A DNA stretch of 55,525 nt from an uncultured Rhodospirillaceae bacterium (lineage in GTDB: Bacteria > Pseudomonadota > Alphaproteobacteria > UBA2966). Location of the stretch: assembly GCA_964401845.1 (NCBI GenBank), contig CAYOAD010000003.1, forward strand, positions 1 through 55,525, given 5' to 3'. Under the pieces are notes generated by a model that did not search any database, was not told the origin of the DNA, and saw nothing but the letters and a program-made list of their open reading frames with translations. The stretch's first letter is position 1, and the number at the start of each line of letters is the position of its first letter. Made by a program: the position numbers and the translations under genes. This document shows, piece by piece, positions 28,643 to 55,152 of the stretch.

Positions 28643-29461
28643 TTGTCTGGAGTCAACACCCAAGTGCGCGCCGGCGTCGGACTTTTGTCCAAGGCCTTTC
28701 AGATTCTCGACCTCTTCCAGCCCGAATCACCGGCTTGGTCGCAGGCCGAACTGGTGCGGGCGACCGGTCTCAACCGCTCGACCATGAACCGGCTGGTGCG
28801 TTATCTGTCGGAGTGCGGCTACCTCGCCCTGATTGAGCAAACGGGCCGTTATTCATTGGGTCCCGCCGCCATCGACCTGGGCCGCCGCGCGGCAGCCAGC
28901 TTCGACCTGCGTGAAATCTGCCAACCCGTATTGGAGCGTCTGGCGGCGGAAACGGAGGAGACCATTATCCTCACGGCGCACAACGAAGCCGATGACACCG
29001 TCGTCTGCGTCGATCAGATCGAAAGCCGCCGGGGCGGCCTGCGGGTCTTCCAGCAGATCGGCACGACCCTGCCGCTGCACGCCGGCGCATCGCCGAAGGC
29101 GGTCCTGGCGGCACTGCCCGAGGAAGATCGCGACCGCTACGTCTCGAAATCGCTGGATGCCCTGACCGCACACACGATCGTCAACGAGATTGCCCTCAGA
29201 ACCGACATGGAACGCACCATCGACCGGGGATTCGCCATTTCGCGGGAGGAGACATATGAAGGTGTCGTCGGCATAGGCGCCGCTTTTACCGGACCGAACG
29301 GGCGGCCTTTGGGTAGTGTCGCCATCGCCGGTCCCATGCAGCGCATATCGCAGGAACAAATCGACCGCTACGGCGAGCTGCTGCTGGCGGCGGCGGCCGA
29401 AATTGAAGGCCGCGTTAGGGGGCGGTCCGCGCAACCGGATGACGAGGGGGTTGCGGCATGA
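28643..29461 (+). CDS. IclR family transcriptional regulator
   Basis: HTH plus IclR effector domain (LLSKAFQILDLF...WSQAELVRATGLNRSTMNRLVRYL). The TTG start at 28643 is uncertain; GTG at 28664 is also possible. Confidence 0.85.
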   Translation: MSGVNTQVRAGVGLLSKAFQILDLFQPESPAWSQAELVRATGLNRSTMNRLVRYLSECGYLALIEQTGRYSLGPAAIDLGRRAAASFDLREICQPVLERLAAETEETIILTAHNEADDTVVCVDQIESRRGGLRVFQQIGTTLPLHAGASPKAVLAALPEEDRDRYVSKSLDALTAHTIVNEIALRTDMERTIDRGFAISREETYEGVVGIGAAFTGPNGRPLGSVAIAGPMQRISQEQIDRYGELLLAAAAEIEGRVRGRSAQPDDEGVAA

Positions 29462-30444
29462 AGTGCTGGCAATCGGGTGACAAACCCGGCGTTGAAGCGC
29501 TTGCCCTGATCGAGGCGGAAGCGCCGGGTCCGACGAAGCGGGAAATGGTCGTCGAAGTCCACGCCGCGGCGCTTAATTTTTCCGATCTTCTGATGATCGA
29601 CGACAGCTATCAAATCAAGCCGCCGCGCCCATTCACGCCCGGCCAGGAGGTTGCCGGCGTGGTGGTTTCGGCGCCCGATGATTGCCCCTGGGCACCAGGC
29701 GACCGCATTGCCAGCAAAGTACTCTGGGGCGGCTTTGCCGAGTTCGCCCGCGTGCGCACCGACATGGCGATCGCCATCCCCGACGGGGTCGATTTCGCCA
29801 AGGCCGTGGCGCTACCCGTGGTCTACACGACATCGATGATCGCGCTCACCGAATGCGCCGACGTGCGGGAAGACGACTGGGTTCTGGTCCATGCCGCCGC
29901 CGGCGGCGTCGGATTGGCCGCGGTGGAAATCGCCCACGCAAAAGGGGCGAAAGTCATCGCCACGGCGGGCAGCGAGGAAAAACTGGCGCTCGCCCTGGCC
30001 CACGGTGCGGATGAAGGTATCGATTACAAGTCGGCCGATTGGGTTGCATCCGTCAAGGAAATCACCGAGGGCCGTGGCGCCGACCTCATCGTCGATCCCG
30101 TCGGCGGCGAGATCGCGGAAAAGAGCCTGCGCTGCATCGCCCGCGACGGCACCTTGCTGGTGGTCGGCTTCGCCTCCGGCGACATCCCGAAACTCGCGGG
30201 TCATCTATTGTTGCTGAAGCGAGCGTCGGCCAAGGGAGTCTACTGGGACCACGATCATGACGGCCCGATGATCGAACGCGCAACGGCTGAACTCACCGAC
30301 ATGCTGGTGGCCGGCGCCATAAATCCCGTGGTCATAGACCATTATGGATTGGAAGATCTGCCCCGGGCGCTGGCCGACCTCGGTACGCGTGGCTCGGTTG
30401 GGAAACTGGCCCTGCGTCTTGGCGGCCAAGGAGGAGAGGCATGA
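29458..30444 (+). CDS. NADPH:quinone oxidoreductase-like medium-chain dehydrogenase/reductase
   Basis: MDR pattern with VHAAAGGVGLAAVEIAK Rossmann motif. ATGA overlaps on both sides. Confidence 0.8.
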   Translation: MKCWQSGDKPGVEALALIEAEAPGPTKREMVVEVHAAALNFSDLLMIDDSYQIKPPRPFTPGQEVAGVVVSAPDDCPWAPGDRIASKVLWGGFAEFARVRTDMAIAIPDGVDFAKAVALPVVYTTSMIALTECADVREDDWVLVHAAAGGVGLAAVEIAHAKGAKVIATAGSEEKLALALAHGADEGIDYKSADWVASVKEITEGRGADLIVDPVGGEIAEKSLRCIARDGTLLVVGFASGDIPKLAGHLLLLKRASAKGVYWDHDHDGPMIERATAELTDMLVAGAINPVVIDHYGLEDLPRALADLGTRGSVGKLALRLGGQGGEA

Positions 30445-31643
30445 GCGGCAATAACATTCTTTCCGGTATCCGTATCCTCGATCTCAGTCGCGTCATGTCG
30501 GGACCGTTCTGCACCTCGATGCTGGCCGACCTCGGCGCCGAAGTGATCAAGATCGAGTTGCCGGTACATGGTGACGAGGCGCGCTCATTCGGCCCCTACC
30601 GCGACGGGGAGAGCACCTACTTCATGCTGCTCAACCGCGACAAAAAAAGCGTCACGGTCGATATGAAAAGCGATGAGGGCCGGGCCTTGATCAACACCCT
30701 CATTCCCAAATGCGACGTGCTGGTGGAAAATTTCCGTCCCGGAGTCACGAAACGTCTAGGCCTTGACTGGGAGGCCGTTCACGCCCTCAACCCGGCGATG
30801 ATCTACGCCAGCATTTCGGGCTTCGGGCAGGAAAGTCCGCTGGCCAACTGGCCCGCCTTCGACCTCGTGATCCAGGCCATGACCGGTCTGATGAGCCTGA
30901 CCGGCCCCAAGGGCGGACCGCAGACGGCGGTCGGTGAGTCGGTGGCCGACGTCTGTACCGGCATGTTCGCCGCTTTCGGCATCATGGCCGCTCTGTTCGA
31001 CCGGGAGCGCAACGGCAACGGGCGCCACCTCGACATCGCCATGCTCGATTCCATGATGGCCATGCAGCTCACCGGTCTCGCCCGCCAACTCTATTTCGAC
31101 GACACGCCGAAGCCCGTCGGCAACCGCCATCCCGTAACATATCCGGTTGACACCTTCCCGACGACCAGCGGCGACATCGTCATGGTGTGCTTTTCCGATG
31201 CCGCGTTCCGGGCATTGGGTGAGCTGATGGGCGACGACGGCCTTGCCGACAATCCCAAATTCAAAACCAACGCCGACCGCAATACGAACGAGGAAGAATT
31301 GCGGGCTTTGATCAGTGCCTGGTCCTCCCGGCTTACCCAGGACGAAGTCATCGAACGACTTCTCAAAGCCCGCATCCCCGCCGCGCCGGTGTGGAACCTC
31401 AAACAATTGGTCGAACACGAGCACACGACAGCGCGCGGTCTGGTCGTCGAGGGCGTTCACGAGACATTCGGCAGCGTCCCCCTGGTCCGCCAGCCGGTGA
31501 AATTTTCCGATGTCGGCGGCGAAGGACCGGCCGGCGCGCCCACGACGCCGCTCCTCGGTGAACACACGGACGCCGTCCTTGGCGATTTGGCCGGCCTGTC
31601 GGCCGATGAAATCGCCGCCTTGAGATCGAAAAACGCCATTTGA
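30441..31643 (+). CDS. Family III (CaiB/BaiF) CoA-transferase
   Basis: [32 protein letters not shown]-terminus is typical of the family. 400 aa. Confidence 0.88.
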
Positions 31644-31659
31644 TGGGAAAGCCCACGAT

Positions 31660-33330
31660 ATGACGACAGCCGCAAACCGCCGCGTGGTCCGGTCCCCCCG
31701 GGGTCCTGAACTGAACGCCAAGAGCTGGCAGACCGAAGCGCCGCTTCGCCTGATGATGAACAACCTCGATCCCGACGTGGCCGAACGTCCGGAAGAGCTG
31801 GTGGTGTACGGCGGCATCGGCCGTGCCGTGCGCAACTGGGAGAGCTTCGACCGCATGGTGGCGATGCTCAAGGAACTGGAGGACGACGAGACGCTGCTGG
31901 TGCAATCGGGCAAACCGGTCGGCGTCTTCAAAACCCATGACCGGGCGCCGCGCGTGCTGATCGCCAACGGCAACCTGGTACCCAACTGGGCCAACTGGGA
32001 AACCTTCAACGAACTCGACCGTCAGGGTCTGATGATGTACGGCCAGATGACGGCGGGTTCATGGATCTATATCGGCAGCCAAGGCATCGTCCAGGGCACC
32101 TACGAGACGTTTTCCGAAATCGGGCGACGGCATTTCAACGCGGACCCGACGGGCAAGCTCGTCGTCACCGCCGGTCTCGGCGGCATGGGCGGGGCGCAGC
32201 CGCTGGCCGCCACCATGGCGGGCTTCAACGCCATCGTCGTCGAGTGCCAGCGCCATAAAATCGATTTCCGCCTGCGCACCGGCTACCTCGATACCCATGC
32301 CGAAAATCTCGATGAGGCCTTGGGCCTAATCGAAGCGGCAAACGCCAAAGGCGAGGCGCTGTCTGTCGGCCTGTTGGGCAACGTCGTCGATGTGTTGGAA
32401 GACATGAAGACCCGCCAGATCGTGCCTGACGTATTGACCGACCAGACCTCGGCCCATGATCCCGCCTTCGGCTACCTGCCCGTCGGCTGGACCGTTGCCG
32501 AATGGGAGGAACGGCGCGAGCGCGATACGGCCGGCGTCAGCGCCGCGGCGAAGGAGAGCATGGCGCGGCATGTTGAGCTGATGCTGTCGTTCGAGCAGAT
32601 GGGCAGCATCGTACTGGAGTACGGCAACAACCTGCGCGCCATGGCGCGCGACGCCGGCGTCGAGGACGCCTTCCAGTTCCCCGGCTTCGTCGAAGCCTAC
32701 GTGCGGCCGCTGTTCTGCGAGGGCAAGGGGCCGTTCCGCTGGCTGGCGCTGTCAGGCGATCCTGAAGACATCTTCAAGACCGACCAAAAGGTGCGCGAAC
32801 TGCTGCCCGACGATACCTTCCTGCACAACTGGCTGGACAAGGCGCAGAAACACATCTCCTTCCAGGGCCTTCCCGCGAGGATCTGCTGGGTCGGTCTCGG
32901 TGACCGTCACCGCCTTGGCCTCGCCTTCAACGAGATGGTGCGGAACGGTGAATTGAGCGCGCCTATCGTGATCGGACGCGACCATATGGATTCAGGTTCC
33001 GTCGCCAGTCCGACGCGCGAGACCGAGGGCATGAAGGACGGCTCCGACGCCGTTTCCGACTGGCCCATCCTCAACGCATTGTTAAACGTCGCCAACGGTG
33101 CCACCTGGGTGTCCTTCCACCACGGCGGCGGCGTCGGTATGGGTTACTCGCAGCACGCCGGCATCGCCTTGCTGGCGGACGGCTCCGCCCTGGCCGACGA
33201 ATATCTGGCTAGAACGCTCTGGAACGATCCGGCGACGGGCGTCATGCGCCACGCCGACGCGGGCTACGATATCGCCATTGACTGCGCCCGGCGGCACGAT
33301 CTCAACCTGCCGTTTCTCGGGCCCCGCTAA
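31660..33330 (+). CDS. Urocanate hydratase paralogue (second copy)
   Basis: 556 aa, collinear with hutU at 16290..17969. Motifs [24 protein letters not shown] and [18 protein letters not shown] are all retained. Confidence 0.9.
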
Positions 33331-37989: not shown

Positions 37990-39597
37990 CTAAAACCGTC
38001 CGTCGTAGGCCTTGCGTCCGATCACGGCGGCGATAAGGGTGAAGGTATCGCGCGCCAGGGCGGCCTCCAAGGCAGCGGCCAAACCGGCACGGTCCTCCAC
38101 CCGGCAACCCGTTCCGCCCAGGGCCTCGGCCACGGCGGGAAAATCGGTGCCGCCGAAATCGACGGCCAAGTTGGGCAGCTGGGAGCCGCGCTGCTTCAGT
38201 TCGATCAGGCCAAGGCTCTCGTCGACGAAGACGACGATGGGCAGTCCGAGCCGCAGATCACGCAGGGTGGCCAATTCGCCCAGGAACATCTCCAGCCCGG
38301 CGTCGCCGACGAACACCGCCACGGGCCGCGAGGGTTCCGTCAGCTTGCGCCCGATGGCCAGCGGCAGCGCGCAGCCCATGGTGCAAAGCGCCGAGGACTG
38401 CAACAGACCGCGCGGCTCAAAGCAGTCCCAGATCTGGCTCAACAGGATGCGGTGGGCGCCGGTGTCCACCGTCGCCACCGTCTCACGTGGCAACACGCGG
38501 CGGCTTTCATCAACCACGGCGGCCGGTCCCCAGTCCTCGTCGCGGTCGAAATCGCCGCGTAGGGCTTGGCGCACACCGGCGGCTTCACCGTTGGGCCAGT
38601 GAGGGCGGGCTGCTGTGTCCCGGCGCAGCGCCGCCAGACCGGCACCGACGTCGCCCACGAAATTGAGCGCCGCCTGGTGCACGTAATGGGTATTGGCGGC
38701 GGCGGAGAATTCGATGACGCGGGCGTCCTTGCTCCAGGCGTCGCGCCAGCCCTGGCGCATTTCGATGGGGTCGTAGCCGGCCAGCACGAGGCAATCGCTC
38801 AGCCCAACCAGCGGCAGCAAATGGCGGTCGGCCTTGGGCGACAACCCCGCCGCCCCCAACGCCAGCACATCGTCTTCCGGCAGAACGCCCTTGGCCTTGT
38901 AGGTGGTGATCAGCGGCACGTCCAAATCCCGGCAGAAATCGGCGACCTGGGTCGCGCAGCCCTGATTGAGCACGTCAACGCCGGCGACCATCAACGGCCG
39001 TTCGGCCTCGGCCAGCCAGCGCCGCGCCGTTTCCAGGTCATCGCCTTCCGCCGGCGCCATCGGGGCGAGCGGCGCGCGGTTGGGCTGGGCGCCATCGGGC
39101 TGTTCGGCGTCCTGGGCGTCCATCGCCACGTCGAGCAGTACCGGGCCGGGCCGGTCCTGGGTGGCGATAGCAACGGCCTTGTCGGCCAGCACCGACGCCG
39201 TGCCCTGGACGACGCGGAAGGCCGCTTTGGTCACCGGTTCGAGGAACTTCACCTGGTCGAATATCTGGTGCGTGTAGGTATGGCCTTCGACATCGGGCAC
39301 CGAGCCCGTAAGCACGATCATCGGCACCCGGTCCTGCAGGGCGTTGGCCACGACGTTGGCGGCGTTGGCGATACCGGGACCGATGGTCGCCACCAGGATA
39401 CCCGGCGCGCCGTCGTGGTGGTGAACGCCCTCCGCCATGAAGCCCGCGCTGTTCTCGTGCTTGGCCAGCACCACGCGCATGCCGACACGCTCAAGTGCGG
39501 CCATCAGCGCCAGGACCTCGCCGCCCGGTATGCCGAAGGCGTGACGGCAGCCGGCGTCGTAGAGGCGCTGAGCGATGACCTCGGCGCTGGTCGCCAT
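37990..39597 (-). CDS. Thiamine-diphosphate enzyme, acetolactate synthase large-subunit-like family
   Basis: N-terminal Pyr domain (AFGIPGGEVLALMAAL...HENSAGFMAEG) and C-terminal ThDP motif (GDAGLEMFLGELATL). The ATG overlaps the upstream stop as ATGA at 39597. Confidence 0.85.
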   Translation of the reverse strand: MATSAEVIAQRLYDAGCRHAFGIPGGEVLALMAALERVGMRVVLAKHENSAGFMAEGVHHHDGAPGILVATIGPGIANAANVVANALQDRVPMIVLTGSVPDVEGHTYTHQIFDQVKFLEPVTKAAFRVVQGTASVLADKAVAIATQDRPGPVLLDVAMDAQDAEQPDGAQPNRAPLAPMAPAEGDDLETARRWLAEAERPLMVAGVDVLNQGCATQVADFCRDLDVPLITTYKAKGVLPEDDVLALGAAGLSPKADRHLLPLVGLSDCLVLAGYDPIEMRQGWRDAWSKDARVIEFSAAANTHYVHQAALNFVGDVGAGLAALRRDTAARPHWPNGEAAGVRQALRGDFDRDEDWGPAAVVDESRRVLPRETVATVDTGAHRILLSQIWDCFEPRGLLQSSALCTMGCALPLAIGRKLTEPSRPVAVFVGDAGLEMFLGELATLRDLRLGLPIVVFVDESLGLIELKQRGSQLPNLAVDFGGTDFPAVAEALGGTGCRVEDRAGLAAALEAALARDTFTLIAAVIGRKAYDGRF

Positions 39598-40802
39598 CAG
39601 CGGGCCGGTGAATTGAGCCGCGCATACCCATCGCGGGTCTGCGGCAGTTTGCGGTCCAGAAGGCGGGAGGCCACGACGGTGCGCAGGATCTGCGCCGTGC
39701 CGCCACCGATGGTGAACATGCGCGCATCTCGCACCATTCTCTCAAGCGGCAGATTGCGTGAGTAGCCCGCCGCGCCGAACACCTGCAGCGCGTCGTTGGT
39801 TACCTTGATGGCGGTCTCGGAGGCCAGGATCTTGGCCTGGGCGGCCTCCAGCGGATCGGGAAAACCGTCTCCCGCGGCGGCCTTGTAGATCAATGCCTGG
39901 GCCGCCGCCAGGGAAATGCTCATGTCCGAGAGCATCCACTGCAGGCCCTGGAATTCACAGATCGGACGGCCGAACTGTTCGCGGGTCTGGGCGTAATCGA
40001 GCGCCAGTTCATAGGCCCCCTCGGCGATCCCGAGCGCTACCGTCGCCGCGCCGACGCGCTGGGCATTGTAGGCGTTCATCAACCCGGCGAAGCCCCGGCG
40101 CAATCCTTCGGGCGGCAGCACGATCATGTCTTCCGGAACCTCAAGGTCCTCGAACAGGACCTCGGTCTCGGGAATGCCCTTGAGACCCATGGCGGGTTCG
40201 CGCCGGCCGATGCGCAAGCCCTTGGGCGTCCCGGCCTCGGCGTCACGCAGACAGAGAAAACCGCCGATGCCCTGTTCCTCGCCGTTCTCGAAGACGCGGG
40301 CGAAGATCAGGTGAACCCTGGAAACGCCACCGCCCGTGATCCAGTGCTTGCCGCCGTTCAGAACGTAACGGTCGCCCTGTTTGTCGGCGCGCGTCGTCAT
40401 TTCCGTGGCGGCGCTGCCCGCGCCGGGTTCGGTGATGCAGATGGCCGGTTTGTCGCCGGCCAGTACGGCGTCGGCGGCCAGGCGCTTTTGCGCTTCCGAG
40501 CCGAATTGCATGACAGCGCCGATGGCGCCCATGTTGGCTTCCACCACGATGCGTCCCGTGACGCCGCAAACCTTGGCCATTTCCTCGATGACCAGCACGG
40601 CTTCGGCATAGCCCAAACCCTGTCCGCCGTAGGCTTCGGGGATGGTCATGCCCATGAAGCCGGCGCCGGTCAGTGCCGCGACGTTGTCCCAGGGGTATTC
40701 CTCCGTGCGGTCGACTTCCGCAGCGCGCGCGGCGATGACATCCGTCGCCAAGGCCCGCGCGGCGTCGCGGATTTGAATTTGCGTTTCGCTCAGTCGAAGC
40801 AT
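39597..40802 (-). CDS. Acyl-CoA dehydrogenase-fold protein lacking both catalytic-base glutamates, predicted 3-sulfinopropionyl-CoA-type desulfinase
   Basis: ACAD motifs are present (GDKPAICITEPGAGSA, WITGGG). However it has Arg84 (VTGRIVVE), Gln248 (NAYNAQRVG) and Gly366-368 (FTIGGGTAQI in place of YEGT). Codons were checked in the DNA. Confidence 0.65.
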   Translation of the reverse strand: MLRLSETQIQIRDAARALATDVIAARAAEVDRTEEYPWDNVAALTGAGFMGMTIPEAYGGQGLGYAEAVLVIEEMAKVCGVTGRIVVEANMGAIGAVMQFGSEAQKRLAADAVLAGDKPAICITEPGAGSAATEMTTRADKQGDRYVLNGGKHWITGGGVSRVHLIFARVFENGEEQGIGGFLCLRDAEAGTPKGLRIGRREPAMGLKGIPETEVLFEDLEVPEDMIVLPPEGLRRGFAGLMNAYNAQRVGAATVALGIAEGAYELALDYAQTREQFGRPICEFQGLQWMLSDMSISLAAAQALIYKAAAGDGFPDPLEAAQAKILASETAIKVTNDALQVFGAAGYSRNLPLERMVRDARMFTIGGGTAQILRTVVASRLLDRKLPQTRDGYARLNSPAR

Positions 40803-40818
40803 GTTCCTACCCCTTGCC

Positions 40819-42057
40819 TCAAATCACCTTGCCGCGCCGCAATTCGGCCAGCGCCCCGTCATCCAAATCCAGCAGTTCCGTCAGCACCTCGTCGGTATGT
40901 TGGCCCAGTGTCGGCGGCGGACGGCGGTAGCTGACGGGCGTTGCGCCCATTTTCAGCGGATTGCCGATCAGATCGACGGCGCCGGAACCGGCGCTGGGAT
41001 GGGGCATCGATATCTTCATGTCGCGGACCGCCACCTGTTCGCTGGCGAAGACCTCCGGCACGGTATCGACCGGACCCACCGGGACGCCGCGCTGCTTCAA
41101 CCCTTCCAGAACGTCGGCCTTGCTGAACTTCCTAACTTCGACCTCCAGCAGCGCCACCAATTCGTCGCGGTGCGCCAGCCTGTCGGCATTCCTGACGAAG
41201 CGCGGGTCCGCCGCCAGGTCCGGCACCGCCAGCATGTCGCAGAAGCGTTCGAACTGCCGGTCATTGCCGACGGCGACGATGACGTGGCCGTCGGAGGTTT
41301 CAAAGACCTGATAAGGCACGATGTTGGGGTGCTGGTTGCCGCGTCGCGTGGGCGGCTGACCGGACGTCAGGTAGTTCGTGCCCTCGTTGATCAACCAGGC
41401 GATCTGGCTATCCAGCAGCGATATGTCGATGTACTGGCCCTGGCCGGTGAGGTCGCGGTGGCGCAGCGCCCCGAGAATGGCGACGCCGGCGTACATACCG
41501 CACATCACGTCGGCAATGCCGACGCCGACCTTCATGGGCTCACCCTCGGGATCGCCCGTGATGCTCATCATGCCACCCTGGCCTTGGGCCAGGATGTCGT
41601 AGCCGGCCTGTTCGGCGTGCGGGCCGTATTGGCCGAAACCGGTGATGGAGCAGTAAACCAGATGGGGATGGCTTTCCTTGAGGTCGTCATAGCCGAGGCC
41701 GTAGGCCGCCAGGCCGCCCACCTTGAAGTTCTCGATCAGAATGTCGCACTGCGCCGCCAGCCGGCGCACCAGGTCCGCCCCTTCGGCCTTGGATATATCC
41801 ACGGCGACCGAGCGCTTGTTGCGGTTGGCGCAGAGATAATAGGCGCTTTCCGAGGTATCCGTCCCATCGGCGTCCTTGACGTAAGGCGGGCCCCAGGTGC
41901 GGGTATCGTCGCCTACGCCGGCCCGTTCGACCTTGATGACATCGGCGCCCAGATCGCCCATGAGCTGCGTGCAGGTCGGGCCAGCCAGGATGCGCGTCAA
42001 ATCGAGAACGCGGGCGCCGGAGAGCGCACCAGCGGATAGGTTGGCGGGAGACGTCAT
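40819..42057 (-). CDS. Family III (CaiB/BaiF) CoA-transferase
   Basis: Homologous part starts MTSPANLSAGALSGARVLDLTRILAGPTCTQLMGDLGADVIKVE (ATG 42057..42055). The listed ORF start at 42267 is an R/P-rich extension overlapping the VOC gene. Confidence 0.88.
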   Translation of the reverse strand: MTSPANLSAGALSGARVLDLTRILAGPTCTQLMGDLGADVIKVERAGVGDDTRTWGPPYVKDADGTDTSESAYYLCANRNKRSVAVDISKAEGADLVRRLAAQCDILIENFKVGGLAAYGLGYDDLKESHPHLVYCSITGFGQYGPHAEQAGYDILAQGQGGMMSITGDPEGEPMKVGVGIADVMCGMYAGVAILGALRHRDLTGQGQYIDISLLDSQIAWLINEGTNYLTSGQPPTRRGNQHPNIVPYQVFETSDGHVIVAVGNDRQFERFCDMLAVPDLAADPRFVRNADRLAHRDELVALLEVEVRKFSKADVLEGLKQRGVPVGPVDTVPEVFASEQVAVRDMKISMPHPSAGSGAVDLIGNPLKMGATPVSYRRPPPTLGQHTDEVLTELLDLDDGALAELRRGKVI

Positions 42058-42079
42058 GGGCCTGGACTCTTCTCGCAAG

Positions 42080-42110
42080 AAAAAAGGGACATGTAACGAG
42101 TACATGCCCC
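42080..42110 (-). terminator. Intercistronic hairpin plus T-run (terminator or attenuator) between the VOC gene and the CoA-transferase gene
   Basis: On the minus strand: GGGGCATGTA-CTCGT-TACATGTCCC (10-bp stem, one mismatch) followed by TTTTTT. Only 22 nt remain before the CoA-transferase ATG. Confidence 0.55.
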
Positions 42111-42139
42111 TTAGAACGGTTTCAATGCGTAATGGCCGT

Positions 42140-42676
42140 CTATTCGGCGAATTCCTTCTCGTGGATCCAGGCGCCGACCTTGGGGGCCTGGCCGGTTTCG
42201 TTCCATTCCTTGAGCATATCCTCGGCAATGCTGGTCGTGCGGTCCCAAAGTTCCTTGTCCCCGACATTGCAGGAAAGCTCCAGGCGGTGTCCGTTGGGGT
42301 CGAAGCAATAAATCGACTTGAACAGGGTATGATCGGTTACACCGACGACATCCAGGCCGTGGGATTCCCAGCGTTCCTTGGCCGCCAGCAGGTCATCCAT
42401 GCTTTCGACCTCGAAAGCGATGTGCTGGACCCAGTCGGGGGTGTTTTCATCGCGGCCCATTTTGGGCGAATTGGGCAATTCGAAGAACGCCATGTAGCTG
42501 CCCGGCCCGGCCTCGAAAAAGATGTGCATGTAGGGGTCGGGCTCATGGGTCGACGGCACCTTGTCCTCCGACATCGCCATGGCGAACTTCATCCCCATGA
42601 CCTTGGTGTAGAAATCCACCGTTTCCTGTGAATTGTTGCAACGGTAGGCAACGTGGTGCACCCCTTTGATGGCCAT
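42140..42676 (-). CDS. VOC (glyoxalase / bleomycin resistance / extradiol dioxygenase) superfamily protein
   Basis: MAIKGVHHVAYRCNNSQETVDFY...HIAFEVES...DPNGHRLEL, typical paired beta-alpha-beta-beta-beta metal motifs. 178 aa. Confidence 0.8.
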   Translation of the reverse strand: MAIKGVHHVAYRCNNSQETVDFYTKVMGMKFAMAMSEDKVPSTHEPDPYMHIFFEAGPGSYMAFFELPNSPKMGRDENTPDWVQHIAFEVESMDDLLAAKERWESHGLDVVGVTDHTLFKSIYCFDPNGHRLELSCNVGDKELWDRTTSIAEDMLKEWNETGQAPKVGAWIHEKEFAE

Positions 42677-42890: not shown

Positions 42891-44054
42891 GTGGTCGGTA
42901 TGCAGCACATTCTCAAGACATTAAGTAATTCACTTGGCGCCGTTACCAAGTGGGAAGTTTTGAGCGTTTTCGCGCTGCTGCTGTCCGCGCGGGAACACCC
43001 GGCCGACGTATCACGCCTGCGGGCCGAGATGATACTGGCCCGGGTCCACCTGATCGCCGGCGCGTTTTCGGCACTCACGCTGTTGTGGATTGCCGTCGAC
43101 GCCTTCGCCTTCCCGACGGAGGTTTGGCAAACCCTGGCTGTCGGCCGGGCCATGACGGCGGGTGCCCTACTGTTCCTGGCCTATATCTCGAACAAACCGG
43201 GCGAGATGACGGACGCGCGCCTGTGCGCCGCCTTCATGTTCGCCATCCCAACCCTCTTTTACGCCGCCTGCTATCCCTACCTTTCGGATTTCGAAACAAT
43301 GGGCTGGGCCAAGACCGTCTTCACGGGCTATGCCCTGCTGCCCTTCATCGTCATCGCCGGCTTGAGTATTCTGCCGATCTCACTGGCCGAGGCCCTGGCG
43401 TTCGCCGCTCCCCTGCTGCTGGCCAACAGCGCCATCCATATCTTTCTCGTCGACGTCGAGAATATCTACACGTTGACGGGCATTCTGTGGCTGCTGGTTC
43501 TGGCCGCAGCGGTATCGGCCATCGCGGGCGTGAGCCAGCTGCAGCTCATCATCGAGATCGCCCGCCAGGCCGCCGTCGACCCGCTGACGCATGCCATGGT
43601 GCGCCGCATCGGCCAACAGGTGCTGGAGAACCAGTTCAACGTGGCCGACCGGCAAAAGTCCGCGCTGGCCGTCGCGTTCGCCGACATCGATGATTTCAAA
43701 TCGGTCAACGACCGCTTCGGACACGACGAAGGCGACCGCATCCTGCGCCAGGCGGCCGATCATCTGTCGCAGCATCTGAGACGGGCCGACGTGCTGGTGC
43801 GCTGGGGCGGCGAAGAGTTTGTGATCCTATTGCCCGGCACGGACACGGATGGCGCGCGCCAAGTCGCCGCCCGCATCTTCGAGGAGGGCTTGGGCGAGCG
43901 GCCGGAGGGCCGAGCGCTCACCATCAGCATGGGCATCGCCGAAATCCAGGCGGACGAGCCGGAAAGCTGGTCCGATCTCGTGGCCCTGGCGGATGAGCGC
44001 ATGTACCAGGCAAAAAAGAACGGCAAGAACCGTTTCGTCCTCCCCAACGGATAA
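42891..44054 (+). CDS. Membrane-anchored diguanylate cyclase (GGDEF domain, intact I-site)
   Basis: N-terminal multi-TM region. Active site GGEEF, with RRAD (RxxD) 5 residues upstream. Start is GTG at 42891 or ATG at 42900. Confidence 0.85.
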   Translation: MVGMQHILKTLSNSLGAVTKWEVLSVFALLLSAREHPADVSRLRAEMILARVHLIAGAFSALTLLWIAVDAFAFPTEVWQTLAVGRAMTAGALLFLAYISNKPGEMTDARLCAAFMFAIPTLFYAACYPYLSDFETMGWAKTVFTGYALLPFIVIAGLSILPISLAEALAFAAPLLLANSAIHIFLVDVENIYTLTGILWLLVLAAAVSAIAGVSQLQLIIEIARQAAVDPLTHAMVRRIGQQVLENQFNVADRQKSALAVAFADIDDFKSVNDRFGHDEGDRILRQAADHLSQHLRRADVLVRWGGEEFVILLPGTDTDGARQVAARIFEEGLGERPEGRALTISMGIAEIQADEPESWSDLVALADERMYQAKKNGKNRFVLPNG

Positions 44055-44144
44055 CATCCGCGTCATCGCCGGTACGGACATGTCGCTTTCTCATATTGTT
44101 TGTTAGAATGATTCCGGAATTTGTGGCGGGCAATGGGGGTCACA

Positions 44145-45746
44145 ATGTCGGACACGGATCAAGCCGGCGCCGGTGAGGGCGCCTTGCCGGAGTACGGTAT
44201 TTCAGCAGAGATTTCGGACTACAACGTCCGCATCGAATACAACGGCGTCACCGTCGTCGACAGCGACAAGGCCGTGCTTTACCGGGAATCGCGCCTGCCC
44301 GCAGTCTACTACTTCCCCCGCGAGGACGTGCGCATGGACCTCATGCAGCGCACCCGTCACCGCACCCACTGCCCCTTCAAGGGCAACGCCTCCTACTGGT
44401 CACTTGAGGTCGGCGACAACAAGATCGAAGACGCCGTCTGGTCGTACGAAAACCCCCTGCCGGAGGCCAACGCCATCAAGGGGCACCTGGCCTTCTATCT
44501 CTCCAAGATGGGTGTTTCATACAACGAGGACAGCGACTACGAGACCGTCCAGACCGAAATGGACAGCCACGGCAGCGTCTTCGTCGACTGGTTGATGCGG
44601 GAAGGCTGGGACACCCAGTCGCCGTCGGAACTGACCCAGCAATTGGGCGGCGTGCTGGTCGAAAGCGGCATGTCGGTGAGCCGCATGTCGGTTTTCATCC
44701 GCACGCTGCATCCGCTGCTGATCGGCTCGGCCTACGTCTGGCGGCCCGACAAGGAGGACGTGCATTCCTTCGTCCTGACCCACGATACGCTCTCAAGCCC
44801 GCTGTTCCTCGACAGTCCCCTGATCCCGATCTTCAACGGCGCGGGCGGTATTCGCCGCCGGCTGGAAGGCGACAACCCGCTGCTGGATTACGGCATCATC
44901 AAGCAATTGCACGAAGAAGGCATGACCGATTACGCCGCCATGCCGATGACCTTCTCCGACGGCCAGATCAACGCCTTGACGATGTCGACCGACCGCGACG
45001 GCGGCTTCACCACCGCCGAATTGGGCCGGGTGCACGAGATCCTGCCCGTCCTCAGCCGTTTTTACGAAGTCCACGCCGCCCGCAGCATGAGCAACTCGCT
45101 GCTGCAGACCTACCTGGGCCGGCACACCGGTGAAAAGGTGCTCAAGGGATTGATCAAGCGCGGCGATTCCGAGGAACTGAACGCCGTGATCTGGTTTTGC
45201 GACCTGCGCGGGTCGACGCCGCTGGCCGAAAGCATGTCGCGCGAGGAGTTCCTCGCCGTCCTCAATCATTTCTTCGAGTGCATGGTCAAGCCGGTTGTCG
45301 AGTACGGCGGCGAAGTGCTGCGTTTCATCGGCGACGCCGTGCTTGCCGTCTTTCCGCTGCTGGACGGGGACGCGGTTCAGCAACGCGCCTGCGACGACGC
45401 CCTGACGGCGGCCTCCGACGCCGAGGACCGCATGAAGAAGTTCAACGAGGAACGGGCGGCCGAGGGCCTCGATCCCCTGGACTTCGGCATCGGCCTGCAT
45501 GTCGGCCGCCTGACCTACGGCAACATCGGCATCCCCGAGCGCCTGGAATTTACCGTCATCGGCGCCGCCGCCAACGAGGCCGCGCGCATCGAGAGCCTGA
45601 CCAAAGAGGTCGATCCCCGCGTCGTCGTCTCCTCGGCCTTCGCCGAGCGCTGTTCCTCGCCGCTTGTGCCCATCGGCGAGTTTGAGCTGCGCGGCGTCAG
45701 CGAAAAACAGACGATCTACGTGCCCGAGGAGATGCCGGGGTTTTAG
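44145..45746 (+). CDS. DUF427 domain, middle regulatory domain and class III adenylate/guanylate cyclase fusion protein
   Basis: N-terminal DUF427-like region (VVDSDKAVLYRESRLPAVYYFPREDV...HCPFKGNASYWS...AVWSYENP...HLAFY). C-terminal cyclase homology domain (AVIWFCDLRGSTPLAE...LRFIGDAVLAVFP...GIGLHVGRLTYGNIG...TVIGAAANEAARIES). ATG at 44145 follows GGGGG; 44133 or 44121 are possible. Confidence 0.8.
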   Translation: MSDTDQAGAGEGALPEYGISAEISDYNVRIEYNGVTVVDSDKAVLYRESRLPAVYYFPREDVRMDLMQRTRHRTHCPFKGNASYWSLEVGDNKIEDAVWSYENPLPEANAIKGHLAFYLSKMGVSYNEDSDYETVQTEMDSHGSVFVDWLMREGWDTQSPSELTQQLGGVLVESGMSVSRMSVFIRTLHPLLIGSAYVWRPDKEDVHSFVLTHDTLSSPLFLDSPLIPIFNGAGGIRRRLEGDNPLLDYGIIKQLHEEGMTDYAAMPMTFSDGQINALTMSTDRDGGFTTAELGRVHEILPVLSRFYEVHAARSMSNSLLQTYLGRHTGEKVLKGLIKRGDSEELNAVIWFCDLRGSTPLAESMSREEFLAVLNHFFECMVKPVVEYGGEVLRFIGDAVLAVFPLLDGDAVQQRACDDALTAASDAEDRMKKFNEERAAEGLDPLDFGIGLHVGRLTYGNIGIPERLEFTVIGAAANEAARIESLTKEVDPRVVVSSAFAERCSSPLVPIGEFELRGVSEKQTIYVPEEMPGF

Positions 45747-48018: not shown

Positions 48019-49572
48019 TTAATGGCTGGTGCCGGCGGCGTAGCGGGTCTTGTTCCAGACGTTGTACTTGCCGCTCGGTTTTTTCATGGGCAGGCGCTTG
48101 ACCTCCTCAAGGGTCTTGGCGTCGTAAATCACGATTGCGCCGTCGTTCTCCCAGATGCTGATGAGGGCGTGGCTGCCGTCGCGGTCGAACTCGACGTGGG
48201 CGTTGGTCAGGCCGGGCGCGGGGTTGACCGTCTTGACAATCTTCAGCGTGCGTTTGTCGATGACGTGCAGCACATCGCGGTTGTCGCCGAAGAAGACGTC
48301 GACCCAGGCGTAGGGCGAACTTTCGTGGCTGCGCATGAAGAACCCGGGCCCCAGGGTCTCGATGATTTTGATGGTCTGCCACGATTGCATGTCGATGACG
48401 CTGACCAGCCCACCCCTGAGATGCGGCGTCGCCATGACGTCGCGGCCCTCATATTGCCAGGTGATGCCGGAGCCCAGATGCGGCATGCCGGCCAGCTCGA
48501 TGTCGGCAATCTTGCGGCCGACGTTGAGGTTGACGACCTGGCCGTTCTTGGCGTTGCGGGCGGCGCCGATCAGGTTGCGGTAATCCAGGTCGAAAAAGAA
48601 ATCGTCGAGGTAATCGTCGAGCATGATGCGCCGCACCGGAAACGGTCCGGGCATGGGGATGGCCTCCTCCATGCCCTCCTCGTGGTTGTGCACCAGGCCG
48701 GGGTAAACCTTGATGGCGGGATCGTAGGGGATTTCCCAGATCTCCGGGATGTCTTTCAGCGCCGCCACGAAGCTGTTGCGCGGCGGCGCGGTATAAACGG
48801 CGCTGACCCGCGAGGACCTGCCCTTGGTGTCCTTGACGTCGATCACTTTGATCGGCGAGAGATCCTTGGCCGACAGGGCGACCAGGGTATGCGGCAGGTT
48901 GTTAGCCACCATCAGGAACTTGCCGTCCGACGAGACCGCGACGTTGCGCGTGTTGATGCCGGCGCGGATTTCGGCCACCGGCTGCAGGCCCCAAAGATCG
49001 TACATCGAGACCCAACCGTCGCGGGAAGCGAGGTAGACGAAGCGGCCGTCCGGGGAATACTTGGCGCCGCCATGGACCGCGAAGCGCGTCTTCATGCGGG
49101 CCAGCGGCTCGAAGCGGTCCCCGTCGAGGATGGTGATGTAGTGATCGAAGGTTTCCACCACCGTGAAAAGGTTGAGGGGATCGGCTTGGTGTTGAGGCGC
49201 CGCCGGCAGGTCCGCCAGTCGCGTCATGAATTTGCGTGATTTTGAAATCTCCGCCATGCCCCAGTCGGGAATGTGCGCAAGCGGCGTATAGATCAACGTC
49301 ACCAGAGCGTCGATATCGGCTTTCAAGAGCTGTTGCCCGAAGGCCGGCATCTGGCTGGCTGGACGGCCGCGGGCGATGACGCCGGCCGCCTTGGACTTGC
49401 GCAGGCGTCTCAGGTTTTCCGGCAACAGCGCCGGGCCCTGGCCGCCGAGCCGGTCGGCGCCGTGGCACCAGGCGCAAAAGTTGTCGTAGTTCTGTTCGGG
49501 CGTCTGGCCCAGCGCCGACGTGGCCGCCAGCGCCCAAACCAATGCGCTCGCCACCAAACCGAATAAGCGCAT
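48019..49572 (-). CDS. nirN: NirN, cytochrome cd1-like protein (dihydro-heme d1 dehydrogenase)
   Basis: Signal peptide, heme c motif CAWCH, and a cd1 beta-propeller-like C-terminal part. Last gene of the nir cluster. ATG at 49572. Confidence 0.85.
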   Translation of the reverse strand: MRLFGLVASALVWALAATSALGQTPEQNYDNFCAWCHGADRLGGQGPALLPENLRRLRKSKAAGVIARGRPASQMPAFGQQLLKADIDALVTLIYTPLAHIPDWGMAEISKSRKFMTRLADLPAAPQHQADPLNLFTVVETFDHYITILDGDRFEPLARMKTRFAVHGGAKYSPDGRFVYLASRDGWVSMYDLWGLQPVAEIRAGINTRNVAVSSDGKFLMVANNLPHTLVALSAKDLSPIKVIDVKDTKGRSSRVSAVYTAPPRNSFVAALKDIPEIWEIPYDPAIKVYPGLVHNHEEGMEEAIPMPGPFPVRRIMLDDYLDDFFFDLDYRNLIGAARNAKNGQVVNLNVGRKIADIELAGMPHLGSGITWQYEGRDVMATPHLRGGLVSVIDMQSWQTIKIIETLGPGFFMRSHESSPYAWVDVFFGDNRDVLHVIDKRTLKIVKTVNPAPGLTNAHVEFDRDGSHALISIWENDGAIVIYDAKTLEEVKRLPMKKPSGKYNVWNKTRYAAGTSH

Positions 49573-49573
49573 G

Positions 49574-50791
49574 TCAGGCGGTCCTTCGTTGTCCTCGCGT
49601 CGCGGAGAAGGGTACGACTTTGAGGCGGTCGCCGCCACCCGAGACGCCGATCTCCTCATCGGTGAGATAGCAGCCGGGATCCTCGGCCCAGGCGTCGCCG
49701 GTCAGCTGGTAGGCCCGCACGCGGGTATTGCCGCCACAGATGCTGAAATGGGCGCAGCCGGCGCAATGGCCCTTGACCTTGCGGGGTGATTGTTTGAGCC
49801 CCGCCATCAGCGGATCGGAGATGTCCGGCCAGATCTCGGAGAACGCCCGTTCGCGCACGTTGCCCAGGGTGTGATGCCACCACATTGTGTCGGGATGGAC
49901 GTTGCCCAGATTGTCAATGTTGGCGATGTTGACGCCCGAGGAATTACCGCCCCAGCGCTCCAGCATCGGGCGAATATCATCAAGGCGCTCGGGCATGTTG
50001 CGCTCCACCCACATCAGGAAGTAGATCGCGTCGGCGTCATTGTTGCCGGTGACGTAGTCGCGCTCACCCCCGGCCTCGGCATCTTTCCAGGCCCGATCGA
50101 ACAGCATGTCGAGCGCCTCGCGCGTGGCCTGAAAGACGGCGTCGGAGCCCCGGTTGTGATTGCCGCGGCCGGCGTAGTTGAGGTGGGACAGATAGAAACG
50201 GTCGATGCCATCGGCCTCCATCTTGTCCATCATTTCGGGCAGTTCGTGGGCGTTGTCCTGCGTCATGGTAAAGCGCAGGCCGACGCGGAGGTCGCGTTCC
50301 TGACACAGCGCGATGCCGCGCATGGACTGGTCGTAGGCGCCGGCCTTGCGCCGGAAGGTGTCGTGGGTGGCCTGCAGGCCGTCGATGGAGACACCGACGT
50401 AGTCGTAGCCGATCTCGGCGATGGCGTCGATGTTATCGCTATCGATCAGGGTGCCGTTGGTCGACAACCCGACGTAGAAGCCCTTGGCCTTGGCCCGGTG
50501 GGAAATGTCGAAGATATCGGGGCGCAACAAGGGCTCGCCGCCCGAGAGGATCAGCACGGGCACGCGGAAATCACGCAGATCGTCCATCACCCCGAAGATC
50601 TCTTCGGTCGACAATTCGCCCGTGAAGTCCTTGTCGGCGGAAATCGAATAGCAGTGCTTGCAGGTCAGGTTGCAGCGCCGGATCAGGTTCCAGATGACGA
50701 CGGGGCCGGGGGGCGATCCGCCGCCGCTGCCGCGCCGCGTTTCGGGCGCGTGGCCGGCCAGGGTTCGCATGTATTGGGAAACGCGGAACAT
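49574..50791 (-). CDS. nirJ: NirJ, radical SAM heme d1 biosynthesis protein
   Basis: CNLTCKHC (CxxxCxxC) radical SAM cluster motif and a C-terminal Cys-rich SPASM-like region. Position between nirH and nirN. Confidence 0.88.
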   Translation of the reverse strand: MFRVSQYMRTLAGHAPETRRGSGGGSPPGPVVIWNLIRRCNLTCKHCYSISADKDFTGELSTEEIFGVMDDLRDFRVPVLILSGGEPLLRPDIFDISHRAKAKGFYVGLSTNGTLIDSDNIDAIAEIGYDYVGVSIDGLQATHDTFRRKAGAYDQSMRGIALCQERDLRVGLRFTMTQDNAHELPEMMDKMEADGIDRFYLSHLNYAGRGNHNRGSDAVFQATREALDMLFDRAWKDAEAGGERDYVTGNNDADAIYFLMWVERNMPERLDDIRPMLERWGGNSSGVNIANIDNLGNVHPDTMWWHHTLGNVRERAFSEIWPDISDPLMAGLKQSPRKVKGHCAGCAHFSICGGNTRVRAYQLTGDAWAEDPGCYLTDEEIGVSGGGDRLKVVPFSATRGQRRTA

Positions 50792-50794
50792 GGG

Positions 50795-51325
50795 CTACCT
50801 CCGATCACCGGATTTGGGCGCGCCCAGGCGAAAGCCGGTCTTCTTCAAAATTGCCGTGCTGAACAGCACCTTGTGGCCCCGGTCGCGCGCACCCAGCAGG
50901 TCCGCGATCCGGGCAACCTGATCATGGACCGCCGCGCGATCGCGGCCATGCACCATGGCGAACAGGTTGTAGGGCCAGTCCGGCAAATGGCGCGGCCGGC
51001 GGTAACAGTGGCTGACGAAATCGAGGGCGCCGATTTCCCGTCCCGCCGCATCGGCCTCGTCGTCCGAGACGTTCCAGACGCTCATGCCGTTACCGCGGTA
51101 ACCTAGCTTGTAGTGATTGGGCACGGTGGCGATGCGGCGGATGATGCCGGCGTCAAGCATCGCCTGCAGGCGCGCCATGACTTCCGGCCCCGTCAGTCCC
51201 AGTTGGTCGGCGATGTCGTGGTAGGGCCGGGGCGTCAGCGGCAGGCCCTGCTGCGTCGCCGCGACGATCAGGCGGTCGACGGCGTCCAGGCCCGTTTCGG
51301 TGTCGAATTCGCCGGCGCTGCTCAT
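50795..51325 (-). CDS. nirH: NirH, Lrp/AsnC-like siroheme decarboxylase subunit
   Basis: 176 aa. Has the conserved PRPY/PNHYKLGY/WPYNLFAMVHG pattern shared with the two upstream genes, and the expected position. Confidence 0.8.
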   Translation of the reverse strand: MSSAGEFDTETGLDAVDRLIVAATQQGLPLTPRPYHDIADQLGLTGPEVMARLQAMLDAGIIRRIATVPNHYKLGYRGNGMSVWNVSDDEADAAGREIGALDFVSHCYRRPRHLPDWPYNLFAMVHGRDRAAVHDQVARIADLLGARDRGHKVLFSTAILKKTGFRLGAPKSGDRR

Positions 51326-51328
51326 GGC

Positions 51329-52797: not shown

Positions 52798-52807
52798 GCC
52801 GCGTCCC

Positions 52808-53977: not shown

Positions 53978-54306
53978 TGTTTCAGTCCTTTGCGTAATCT
54001 GGCGACCAGCCAGGCCGCCTCCTCGTGCGTGAGGAACGGCCGCCACGGCGGCATCGGCGTGCCGGGCACGCCGTCCAGAATGATCTCGATCAAGGCGTCG
54101 TCCGTAAAATGTTCGAGGGCTTCGGGCATCAGCGGCGAACCCAGTCCGCCGCGGCGCGTCAGACCATGGCACGAGCCGCAATCCTGTTCCAGCAGGACGC
54201 CGAGCTCCGCCCGGCGCGGCGGAGTCATTTCGGCTGCCGCCGCTTGAGATACCCCCCCGAGTATCAGCAATGCGAGGAGGGCGCTATTGAGCCGCGACCA
54301 AGACAT
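53974..54306 (-). CDS. nirC: NirC, small periplasmic c-type cytochrome (c55X type)
   Basis: Signal peptide MSWSRLNSALLALLILGGVSQAAAA and heme motif CGSCH. ATG at 54306; 23-nt overlap with the nirE 3' end. Confidence 0.8.
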   Translation of the reverse strand: MSWSRLNSALLALLILGGVSQAAAAEMTPPRRAELGVLLEQDCGSCHGLTRRGGLGSPLMPEALEHFTDDALIEIILDGVPGTPMPPWRPFLTHEEAAWLVARLRKGLKQ

Positions 54307-55105: not shown

Positions 55106-55152
55106 GTCATCCCCCCACGGGATAAAACATTTCACATTGACCAAAGGCCCAA

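Follow-up and report, generated by a model that had tools for sequence, protein, structure and literature searches.

A 3-sulfinopropionyl-CoA desulfinase locus extended by a thiamine diphosphate enzyme: a possible entry point for homocysteine sulfinate

Why should the gene for a thiamine diphosphate (ThDP) enzyme be joined, stop codon to start codon, to the gene for an enzyme that splits sulfite from a C3 sulfinyl-CoA? The question is raised by positions 37990-42676 of a 55,525-nt stretch of DNA (hereafter the window) on contig CAYOAD010000003.1 (assembly GCA_964401845.1) of an uncultured Rhodospirillaceae bacterium. Four open reading frames (ORFs), all co-directional on the minus strand, fill 42676-37990 and encode, in order, a VOC-superfamily protein, a family III CoA-transferase, an acyl-CoA dehydrogenase (ACAD)-like protein and the ThDP enzyme. 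A preliminary description of this DNA, whose gene coordinates agree with ours, had proposed that all four form an undescribed cluster for sulfinate or organosulfur catabolism. We find that the ACAD-like desulfinase and the CoA-transferase are ordinary members of the known system for 3-sulfinopropionate (3SP), and that what is new is the ThDP branch. With about as much confidence as doubt, we propose that the genes from 42057 to 37990 on the minus strand constitute a module that catabolises or clears a C4 sulfinate, by way of a homocysteine sulfinate route fed through the ThDP enzyme.

First, what does the ACAD-like protein do? Its sequence strongly supports a 3-sulfinopropionyl-CoA (3SP-CoA) desulfinase, which would yield sulfite and propionyl-CoA. 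The ACAD fold is complete, with the N-terminal, middle and C-terminal domains (PF02771, PF02770 and PF00441) all exceeding their cut-offs, and the protein scores 663.2 bits on the NCBIfam equivalog NF042439 (3-sulfinopropanoyl-CoA desulfinase) where 600 is the cut-off and the next family reaches 310 bits. It shares 62% identity with the crystallised Advenella enzyme AcdDPN7, whose structures (PDB 5af7/5ahs) it matches at E 1.6e-160 and 537 bits, compared with 248 bits for the best ordinary ACAD. In an alignment with AcdDPN7 (5af7), human isovaleryl-CoA dehydrogenase (IVD; 1ivh) and pig medium-chain acyl-CoA dehydrogenase (MCAD; 3mdd), the last two as partial sequences checked against the PDB, Q248 (Q246 of AcdDPN7) lies opposite the IVD base E254 and MCAD T255, G367 lies opposite the Glu of the MCAD Y-E-G-T motif, and R84 lies opposite R84 of AcdDPN7, a position held by Leu in the ordinary ACAD 3pfd. 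The catalytic Glu is missing at both ACAD base positions, MCAD-type and IVD-type, and R84, Q248 and G367 are invariant across all aligned relatives (eight relatives in the case of R84). In structural work on AcdDPN7, Arg84 reportedly proved essential. Members of the desulfinase family lack the catalytic glutamate and do not dehydrogenate (PMC9293079). The preliminary description had read this same triad of Arg84, Gln248 and Gly367 as the mark of a desulfinase, from codons that are indeed where it placed them (CGC at 40553-40551 for R84, CAG at 40061-40059 for Q248, and GGT GGC GGC at 39707-39699 for G366-368), and the equivalog score, the 5af7 match and the alignment with true ACADs all bear out that reading. 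For this gene, its label of an undescribed cluster does not hold: a curated equivalog already names the enzyme, and the window protein adds one more member to a family already described.

Second, the gene directly 5′ of the desulfinase encodes the family III CoA-transferase, just as the preliminary description had noted in likening it to the partner of AcdDPN7. The order is that of MIM_c31380/31390 in Advenella mimigardefordensis DPN7, where a LysR gene, the CoA-transferase gene and acd are followed by mdo, encoding the thiol dioxygenase that makes 3SP (PMC5373536). Relatives of the desulfinase occur in at least 593 species-representative genomes. Our genome survey comprises the best 80 desulfinase loci, and a pooled set of 84 adds the window and three further loci (L003, L005 and L006; L numbers denote individual loci throughout), with neighbouring genes grouped by clustering of all ORFs. 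Among the 84, orthologues of the window CoA-transferase (58-71% identity) adjoin the desulfinase gene in 28, and a LysR regulator is found in 18. The best NCBIfam match of the CoA-transferase is a succinate--glutarate CoA-transferase, at 495 bits and under the cut-off of 750. Because of its gene position and the Advenella precedent, we presume this protein to be a 3-sulfinopropionate:acyl-CoA CoA-transferase, which would convert 3SP to the desulfinase substrate 3SP-CoA.

Third, is the ThDP gene part of this system or a passenger? At the junction, GCCCGC-TGATG-GCG, the desulfinase and ThDP genes overlap by 1 nt, TGA and ATG sharing A39597; the ATGA overlap given earlier for this position is to be replaced by this TGATG. 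Such abutting or overlapping ACAD-ThDP arrangements are also found in L003, L005, L006, L095 and L096. An orthologue of the ThDP gene lies immediately 3′ of the desulfinase gene, on the same strand, in 35 of the best 80 genome loci. In a reverse survey that started from 80 ThDP loci in metagenome contigs, of which 60 were informative in having at least 700 nt upstream, a desulfinase-type ACAD gene lies directly 5′ of the ThDP gene in 51 (85%); in five of the nine exceptions, an aminotransferase, CoA-transferase, aldehyde dehydrogenase (ALDH) or M20 gene adjoins the ThDP gene instead. Three randomly picked ThDP orthologues, from Limibacillus, Ruegeria and a Rhodovibrionaceae strain, all directly follow a desulfinase-type ACAD gene with overlapping or abutting codons and have a family III CoA-transferase gene nearby, and the ACADs beside them likewise pass NF042439. 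The co-occurrence spans Alpha-, Beta- and Gammaproteobacteria, SAR324 and Actinobacteria. With it, the known 3SP system gains a widespread, conserved and, to our knowledge, uncharacterised extension, which the described route for dithiodipropionate and thiodipropionate (TDP) leaves unexplained; the preliminary description had likewise set the ThDP gene outside the dithiodipropionate/3SP route.

Does this linkage signal a different desulfinase? AcdDPN7 shares 75-77% identity with the ThDP-linked ACADs of Cupriavidus necator N-1, Acidovorax and Streptomyces, and in a neighbour-joining ACAD tree, where ThDP-linked and ThDP-free loci are interleaved, it nests among the ThDP-linked relatives. The nesting and the high identity together argue that the ThDP-linked ACADs are the same enzyme with another feeder rather than a sub-family with another substrate.

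We give hardly any credence to the notion that the ThDP gene is an unrelated acetolactate synthase (ALS) paralogue merely travelling with the desulfinase. Annotation pipelines do label the protein an ALS large subunit, and a comparable case was read in this way: in Variovorax paradoxus TBEA6, whose TDP/3SP cluster contains acdA, act and mdo, the cluster-encoded "IlvX" was more abundant on TDP and 3SP, which the authors credited to genetic vicinity (PMC6370202). Against such hitch-hiking stand the 85% adjacency of the reverse survey, its spread across phyla and the start/stop overlap. Moreover, the protein fails all ALS equivalog cut-offs, and no gene for an ALS small regulatory subunit was seen beside the ThDP gene in the contexts examined.

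Fourth, what kind of ThDP enzyme is it? The protein has the three TPP_enzyme domains PF02776, PF00205 and PF02775, and the cofactor-activating, catalytic E48 (in HENSAGFMAEG) as well as G431-D432 and D459 of the GD...(N/D) Mg-ThDP segment, with motifs assigned by direct reading, are invariant in eight orthologues. It falls under every NCBIfam cut-off: its top match, the acetolactate synthase model PRK08322, gives 322.6 bits against a required 509, and other ALS models fall further below their own cut-offs. PRK07524, the AruI-type 5-guanidino-2-oxopentanoate decarboxylase model with a cut-off of 500, gives 216 bits for the window protein and 216-258 overall. In the PDB, acetolactate synthases come closest, with about 190 bits; structures of 2-hydroxyacyl-CoA lyase (HACL) and oxalyl-CoA decarboxylase (Oxc) score 119-127 bits. 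Database matches number in the thousands, and the best 120, at 63-100% identity, carry generic names only.

Some ThDP genes of this kind occur in other settings. On plasmid pW43B of Parasedimentitalea marina (L091), the desulfinase gene 5′ of an intact ThDP gene lies in frameshifted, unannotated pieces (7800-8959) and appears to be a pseudogene. Distant paralogues (41-52% identity) on Rhizobium/Sinorhizobium plasmids (H4-H17) and on a Bosea plasmid occur with an OpgC-domain protein and without a desulfinase; the copy on pB32-1 of Bosea sp. F3-2 (L092) has a TPR-like protein, a CoA-transferase and a molybdopterin S/N-oxide reductase nearby. These Rhizobium, Sinorhizobium and Bosea paralogues were treated as a different context and left out of the evidence.

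More of the context is visible in a few fuller operons from beyond the marine Alphaproteobacteria. In Acidovorax sp. NCPPB 4044, a divergent LysR gene is followed by genes for an aminotransferase, the CoA-transferase, the ACAD, the ThDP enzyme, two TctC proteins, an M20 protein, an ALDH and a YeiH-type putative sulfate exporter, the last gene of the operon. On plasmid pBB1 of C. necator N-1, LysR, CoA-transferase, ACAD and TctC genes are followed, 4 kb on, by aminotransferase, ThDP, ALDH and M20 genes. A Streptomyces genome has a divergent LysR gene and then aminotransferase, CoA-transferase, ACAD and ThDP genes, and Ruegeria has LysR, ACAD, ThDP, TPR-like, aminotransferase and CoA-transferase genes. 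Acidovorax and C. necator N-1 thus carry both the aminotransferase and the ALDH gene within the operon or next to it, and the Streptomyces operon has the aminotransferase only. The aminotransferases, including the Ruegeria copy, are aspartate-transaminase-like (452-540 bits on PRK06107); the ALDHs belong to the succinate-semialdehyde dehydrogenase (SSADH) family, at 659 bits in Acidovorax (above the cut-off of 646) and 606 bits in C. necator; and the M20 protein passes acetylornithine-deacetylase models and is of the N-acetyl-amino-acid deacetylase type. Judged by their families, all these operon partners are of types that would act on glutamate-, 2-oxoglutarate- or succinate-semialdehyde-like acids; 3SP-CoA, at the known end of the pathway, is itself the sulfinate isostere of succinyl-CoA.

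An aminotransferase and an SSADH-type ALDH beside the ThDP gene argue for a 2-oxo-acid decarboxylase that acts upstream of 3SP, so that sulfite would come from the ACAD-like enzyme only. In the arginine transaminase pathway, the enzymes AruH, AruI and KauB act in just this order of aminotransferase, ALS-like ThDP decarboxylase and aldehyde dehydrogenase. We infer that the ThDP enzyme is a non-oxidative decarboxylase of 2-oxo acids, with 2-oxo-4-sulfinobutanoate as its proposed substrate; both this role and the choice of amino acid are drawn purely from operon logic. Alternatively, the enzyme might act on a CoA thioester or after the desulfinase, either in an Oxc- or HACL-like manner together with the family III CoA-transferase or as a carboligase on a product derived from propionyl-CoA. 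Oxc and its formyl-CoA transferase (Frc) are the classical example of a ThDP enzyme paired with a family III CoA-transferase, homology of the window protein to HACL and Oxc structures is detectable, and the ThDP gene is translationally coupled to the gene of an acyl-CoA enzyme. However, ALS-type matches far outscore those to Oxc and HACL, the aminotransferase gene directly 5′ and the SSADH-type ALDH gene directly 3′ of the ThDP gene fit a free 2-oxo acid, and we know of no ThDP reaction that uses propionyl-CoA or 3SP-CoA. We regard action on a thioester as decidedly improbable.

If the ThDP enzyme is a decarboxylase of this kind, a complete route can be proposed. L-homocysteine sulfinate (2-amino-4-sulfinobutanoate, an analogue of glutamate), perhaps freed from an N-acyl form, would be transaminated to 2-oxo-4-sulfinobutanoate, an analogue of 2-oxoglutarate; the ThDP enzyme would decarboxylate this to 3-sulfinopropanal, an analogue of succinate semialdehyde; and an SSADH-type ALDH would oxidise 3-sulfinopropanal to 3SP. 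The CoA-transferase would then form 3SP-CoA, and the desulfinase would convert it to propionyl-CoA and sulfite. The ThDP gene would in this way fill the role of Advenella Mdo, that is, the making of 3SP, with a carbon skeleton that comes from an amino acid instead of 3-mercaptopropionate, and its location at the position of mdo after acd fits such an alternative 3SP-forming branch. Chemical precedent exists, as the commercial mixture GABase (γ-aminobutyrate (GABA) transaminase plus SSADH) turns homohypotaurine quantitatively into 3-sulfinopropionic acid, the sulfinate being a carboxylate bioisostere (PMC11396700), which supports the proposed sulfinate chemistry. In the source genome, the aminotransferase and the ALDH would be supplied from outside the cluster by housekeeping enzymes; no homologue of the fuller-operon aminotransferase, ALDH or M20 protein was found in the window at E < 1e-20. 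In the full-text literature searched (subscription literature was outside our scope), we found neither a pathway that combines the desulfinase with a thiamine enzyme, nor one for the catabolism of homocysteine sulfinate, nor one that runs through 2-oxo-4-sulfinobutanoate or 3-sulfinopropanal. The ThDP partner probably feeds an oxidised sulfur amino acid into the known 3SP route, homocysteine sulfinate being the most likely one. More tentatively, and somewhat short of even confidence, we suggest that the trio of genes marks a widespread and undescribed pathway for the degradation or clearance of L-homocysteine sulfinate (or of over-oxidised methionine/homocysteine sulfinate) via 2-oxo-4-sulfinobutanoate and 3-sulfinopropanal, and that the ThDP protein founds a new decarboxylase family.

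Several observations weigh against this proposal. Within the same literature, homocysteine sulfinate is undocumented as a bacterial growth substrate. Neither the window nor most of the marine loci have the aminotransferase and ALDH genes, such that the full route is encoded together in few genomes only, and about half of the best 80 genome loci of the desulfinase have no ThDP gene. The best database matches of this uncharacterised ThDP family are acetolactate synthases, which are carboligases, not decarboxylases. Finally, deletion of ilvX, whose product is a possible orthologue of the window enzyme, left growth of V. paradoxus TBEA6 on TDP unchanged (PMC6370202); no Variovorax protein is among the 120 matches listed for either ThDP query. 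An unchanged phenotype on TDP is the outcome expected of a feeder branch for a different precursor, and it fits the homocysteine sulfinate route without being positive evidence for it.

Could the same operon serve a thiol instead? The ThDP enzyme might decarboxylate 4-mercapto-2-oxobutanoate (from homocysteine) or 4-methylthio-2-oxobutanoate (from methionine), giving 3-mercaptopropanal or methional and then 3-mercaptopropionate, with an Mdo encoded elsewhere forming 3SP. The logic of an aminotransferase-ThDP-ALDH operon fits this equally, 3-mercaptopropionate is an established precursor of 3SP, and the Variovorax cluster holds both mdo and ilvX. What speaks for an anionic omega-group, and so for the sulfinate, are the partners of the aspartate-aminotransferase, SSADH and TctC types. 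In addition, a cupin thiol dioxygenase is absent from the window ORFs scanned with Pfam and from the flanks of the cluster, and no thiol dioxygenase was found in the fuller operons or, by eye and without a hidden Markov model, among the recurrent neighbour clusters inspected. The thiol route is in our view unlikely.

Other genes recur around the module. MsrB (SelR domain) is encoded directly 3′ of the desulfinase-ThDP pair, or of a lone desulfinase gene, in 17 of the 84 genome loci and in about 14 of the 80 metagenome loci (e.g., L117 8687-9067, L132 2927-3310 and L160 8091-8465), which suggests that the module is connected with oxidised sulfur amino acids. Genes for Fe(II)/2-oxoglutarate dioxygenases of the TauD/TfdA family lie near the module at L107 4117-4944, L117 2-832, L138 3779-4639 and L159 12710-13531 and in nine genome loci, and are often divergent from a LysR regulator. 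A TPR-like protein of 450-470 aa (L005 11604-13022, L003 4628-5977 and L092 11861-13261), with weak TPR matches only in Pfam and PDB searches, adjoins the desulfinase in 12 genome loci, mostly those without a ThDP gene; its gene also lies 3′ of the ThDP gene in Ruegeria, L102, L156 and on Bosea pB32-1, and it may be a further uncharacterised component of the pathway. At L117 and L138, both of them marine, the extra genes encode an ABC/GGDEF fusion, a trypsin-like protease and an AMP-ligase and proved uninformative.

The recurrence of MsrB and TauD-family genes raises the possibility that the entry compound is some other oxidised sulfur amino acid, such as a methionine sulfone or sulfoxide derivative. 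A TauD-family dioxygenase would generate the sulfinate, since a methyl sulfone hydroxylated at its methyl group should, on chemical reasoning, set it free; MsrB would act on the reducible sulfoxide; and the ThDP enzyme, CoA-transferase and desulfinase would form a common trunk. Neither TauD nor MsrB is present in the window or in the fuller beta-proteobacterial and actinobacterial operons, and we consider this origin distinctly unlikely compared with homocysteine sulfinate itself.

The fourth gene of the cluster, that for the VOC protein, is probably a mere neighbour outside the sulfinate module. The preliminary description had singled out the ThDP and VOC genes as the two additions to the known route, their co-occurrence with the desulfinase being worth checking. 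For the ThDP gene, the association stands (35 of 80 and 51 of 60 loci, as described above); for the VOC gene it does not, as it adjoins the desulfinase in only one of the 83 other genome loci (L007) and in none of the 80 metagenome loci. The VOC gene ends 82 nt before the CoA-transferase ATG, compared with the 16 nt that separate the CoA-transferase stop from the ACAD start, and has a GC content of 57% versus 65-69% in the other three genes. A terminator-like hairpin with a 12-bp stem, a 5-nt loop and a T-run lies in between, about 27 nt 5′ of the ATG at 42057, and an in-frame alternative ATG (42093) falls inside it. As there is no promoter space between the hairpin and the ATG at 42057, read-through from the VOC gene may occur, and the hairpin, instead of being a simple terminator, may dampen this read-through or make the RNA more stable. 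The family of the VOC protein is very large and carries no name; the protein matches PDB 9u42_A, "Glyoxalase" (E 1e-62), and no methylmalonyl-CoA epimerase model is among its NCBIfam matches. Its orthologues occur in unrelated contexts, one of them among housekeeping genes. In Microbulbifer thermotolerans, an orthologue (L089 6001-6561) lies between a 4-hydroxyphenylpyruvate-dioxygenase-like gene and a gene for an FAH-type hydrolase, where homogentisate dioxygenase or maleylacetoacetate isomerase would usually be encoded, and in Ramlibacter (L090), another lies in an aromatic-catabolic cluster beside FAD monooxygenase, DUF2783 and LigAB genes; these settings hint that the family acts in aromatic ring cleavage or isomerisation. 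Membership of the VOC protein in the pathway was rejected on the grounds of its lack of conservation with the module, the unrelated contexts and the intervening hairpin.

With the VOC gene removed, little remains to commend a variant sulfinate or sulfonate pathway of four genes with sulfite release by the ThDP enzyme itself, in the manner of sulfoacetaldehyde acetyltransferase (Xsc), as the preliminary description had suggested. The four genes are indeed co-directional and closely set, and Xsc belongs to the same superfamily of ThDP enzymes. Yet Xsc is absent from the best 25 of the 52 NCBIfam matches to the window protein, the operon partners point to a decarboxylase, and, on chemical reasoning, elimination would need the leaving group next to the ThDP-bound carbon, where a 4-sulfino group is not. 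Such a pathway is very improbable.

Features of the cluster and the evidence for each
Feature	Position	Strand	Evidence
VOC-superfamily protein, 178 aa	42140..42676	-	PF00903 (Glyoxalase)
Family III CoA-transferase, 412 aa	40819..42057	-	PF02515, 426 bits
3-Sulfinopropionyl-CoA desulfinase (predicted), ACAD fold, 401 aa	39597..40802	-	NF042439; 5af7/5ahs; R84, Q248, G367
ThDP enzyme, 535 aa, acetolactate-synthase-like fold, uncharacterised	37990..39597	-	three TPP_enzyme domains
TGATG stop/start overlap of desulfinase and ThDP genes	39595..39599	-	read in sequence; translational coupling
Terminator-like hairpin between VOC stop and CoA-transferase start	42084..42112	-	consensus scan and sequence

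The surroundings of the cluster are unrelated to it. One flank carries genes for an outer-membrane beta-barrel-like protein, a LuxR-type response regulator and a hybrid histidine kinase, and the opposite flank those for a GGDEF protein, an adenylate-cyclase fusion, an isocitrate/tartrate-dehydrogenase-like protein and an aldo-keto reductase. The fusion, a 541-aa protein at 44121-45746 (+) that combines DUF427/NTP_transf_9 with an adenylate/guanylate cyclase, adjoins the GGDEF protein (42891-44054), and the same pair flanks the cluster in Logan contigs. The window encodes one more family III CoA-transferase (30441-31643), which shares 35% identity with the cluster copy and stands in a row at 28643-33330 (+) with an IclR regulator, a zinc-type alcohol dehydrogenase and a urocanate-hydratase-like gene. 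The genes at 48019-55144 (−) are a denitrification/haem d1 cluster, with two Cytochrom_D1 proteins (cytochrome cd1 nitrite reductase-type), a radical-SAM NirJ-like protein, NirD/L/G/H-like siroheme decarboxylase genes and a tetrapyrrole methylase; the source is a denitrifying alphaproteobacterium of marine type. Among genome loci, L007 comes closest, from a metagenome-assembled genome of an uncultured Rhodospirillaceae bacterium (ACAD 94%, CoA-transferase 91%, VOC protein 89% and ThDP enzyme 86% identity), and the next-closest loci are from Kiloniellaceae and Pelagibius.

What would follow from such a ThDP branch? Until now, the 3SP-CoA desulfinase has been associated with the growth of two beta-proteobacteria on the synthetic compounds dithiodipropionate and thiodipropionate. 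The linkage to a ThDP gene in about half of the loci examined provides a concrete hypothesis for the natural substrate of the desulfinase, namely a sulfinate amino acid, and a family of "thiamine pyrophosphate-binding protein" sequences mis-annotated as acetolactate synthase gains a proposed function. If the proposal is true, marine bacteria would possess an additional route by which organic sulfur is mineralised to sulfite, and the induction of IlvX without a phenotype in Variovorax would be accounted for. Likewise, the linkage to MsrB and the abundance of the module in marine Alphaproteobacteria and SAR324 would then point to an unrecognised oceanic pool of sulfinate amino acids or to a means of clearing damaged, oxidised sulfur amino acids there.

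Finally, the locus is best appreciated beside the systems it resembles. With the 3SP modules of Advenella and Variovorax, it shares an orthologous desulfinase and the predicted end products propionyl-CoA and sulfite, and with Advenella the CoA-transferase gene directly 5′. It differs from Advenella in having no Mdo after the desulfinase, this place being taken by the ThDP gene overlapping the stop codon, and its host is a marine-type alphaproteobacterium, unlike the beta-proteobacteria grown on synthetic thioethers. The fuller operons share their three-step logic and the ThDP fold with AruH-AruI-KauB of Pseudomonas aeruginosa; the window enzyme, however, is far under the PRK07524 cut-off, a sulfinate would take the place of the guanidino group as side chain, and the product would proceed to CoA activation and desulfination. 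The proposed intermediates are sulfinate isosteres of those in the 2-oxoglutarate decarboxylase/SSADH bypass and the GABA shunt, the operon ALDH is of the SSADH family, and the SSADH of GABase oxidises the sulfinate aldehyde to 3SP (PMC11396700); unlike these shunts, the proposed route has no omega-carboxylate and would end in C-S cleavage. Some 2-oxoglutarate decarboxylases are ALS-like. As in Xsc, the window enzyme belongs to the ThDP superfamily and would serve organosulfur catabolism, whereas its operon context and leaving-group geometry argue for decarboxylation instead of sulfite release. As with Oxc/Frc, a ThDP enzyme is encoded together with a family III CoA-transferase; unlike in that system, the gene of an ACAD-fold desulfinase lies between the two, the aminotransferase and ALDH partners indicate free-acid substrates, and Oxc and HACL are more distant relatives than the ALS-type enzymes.

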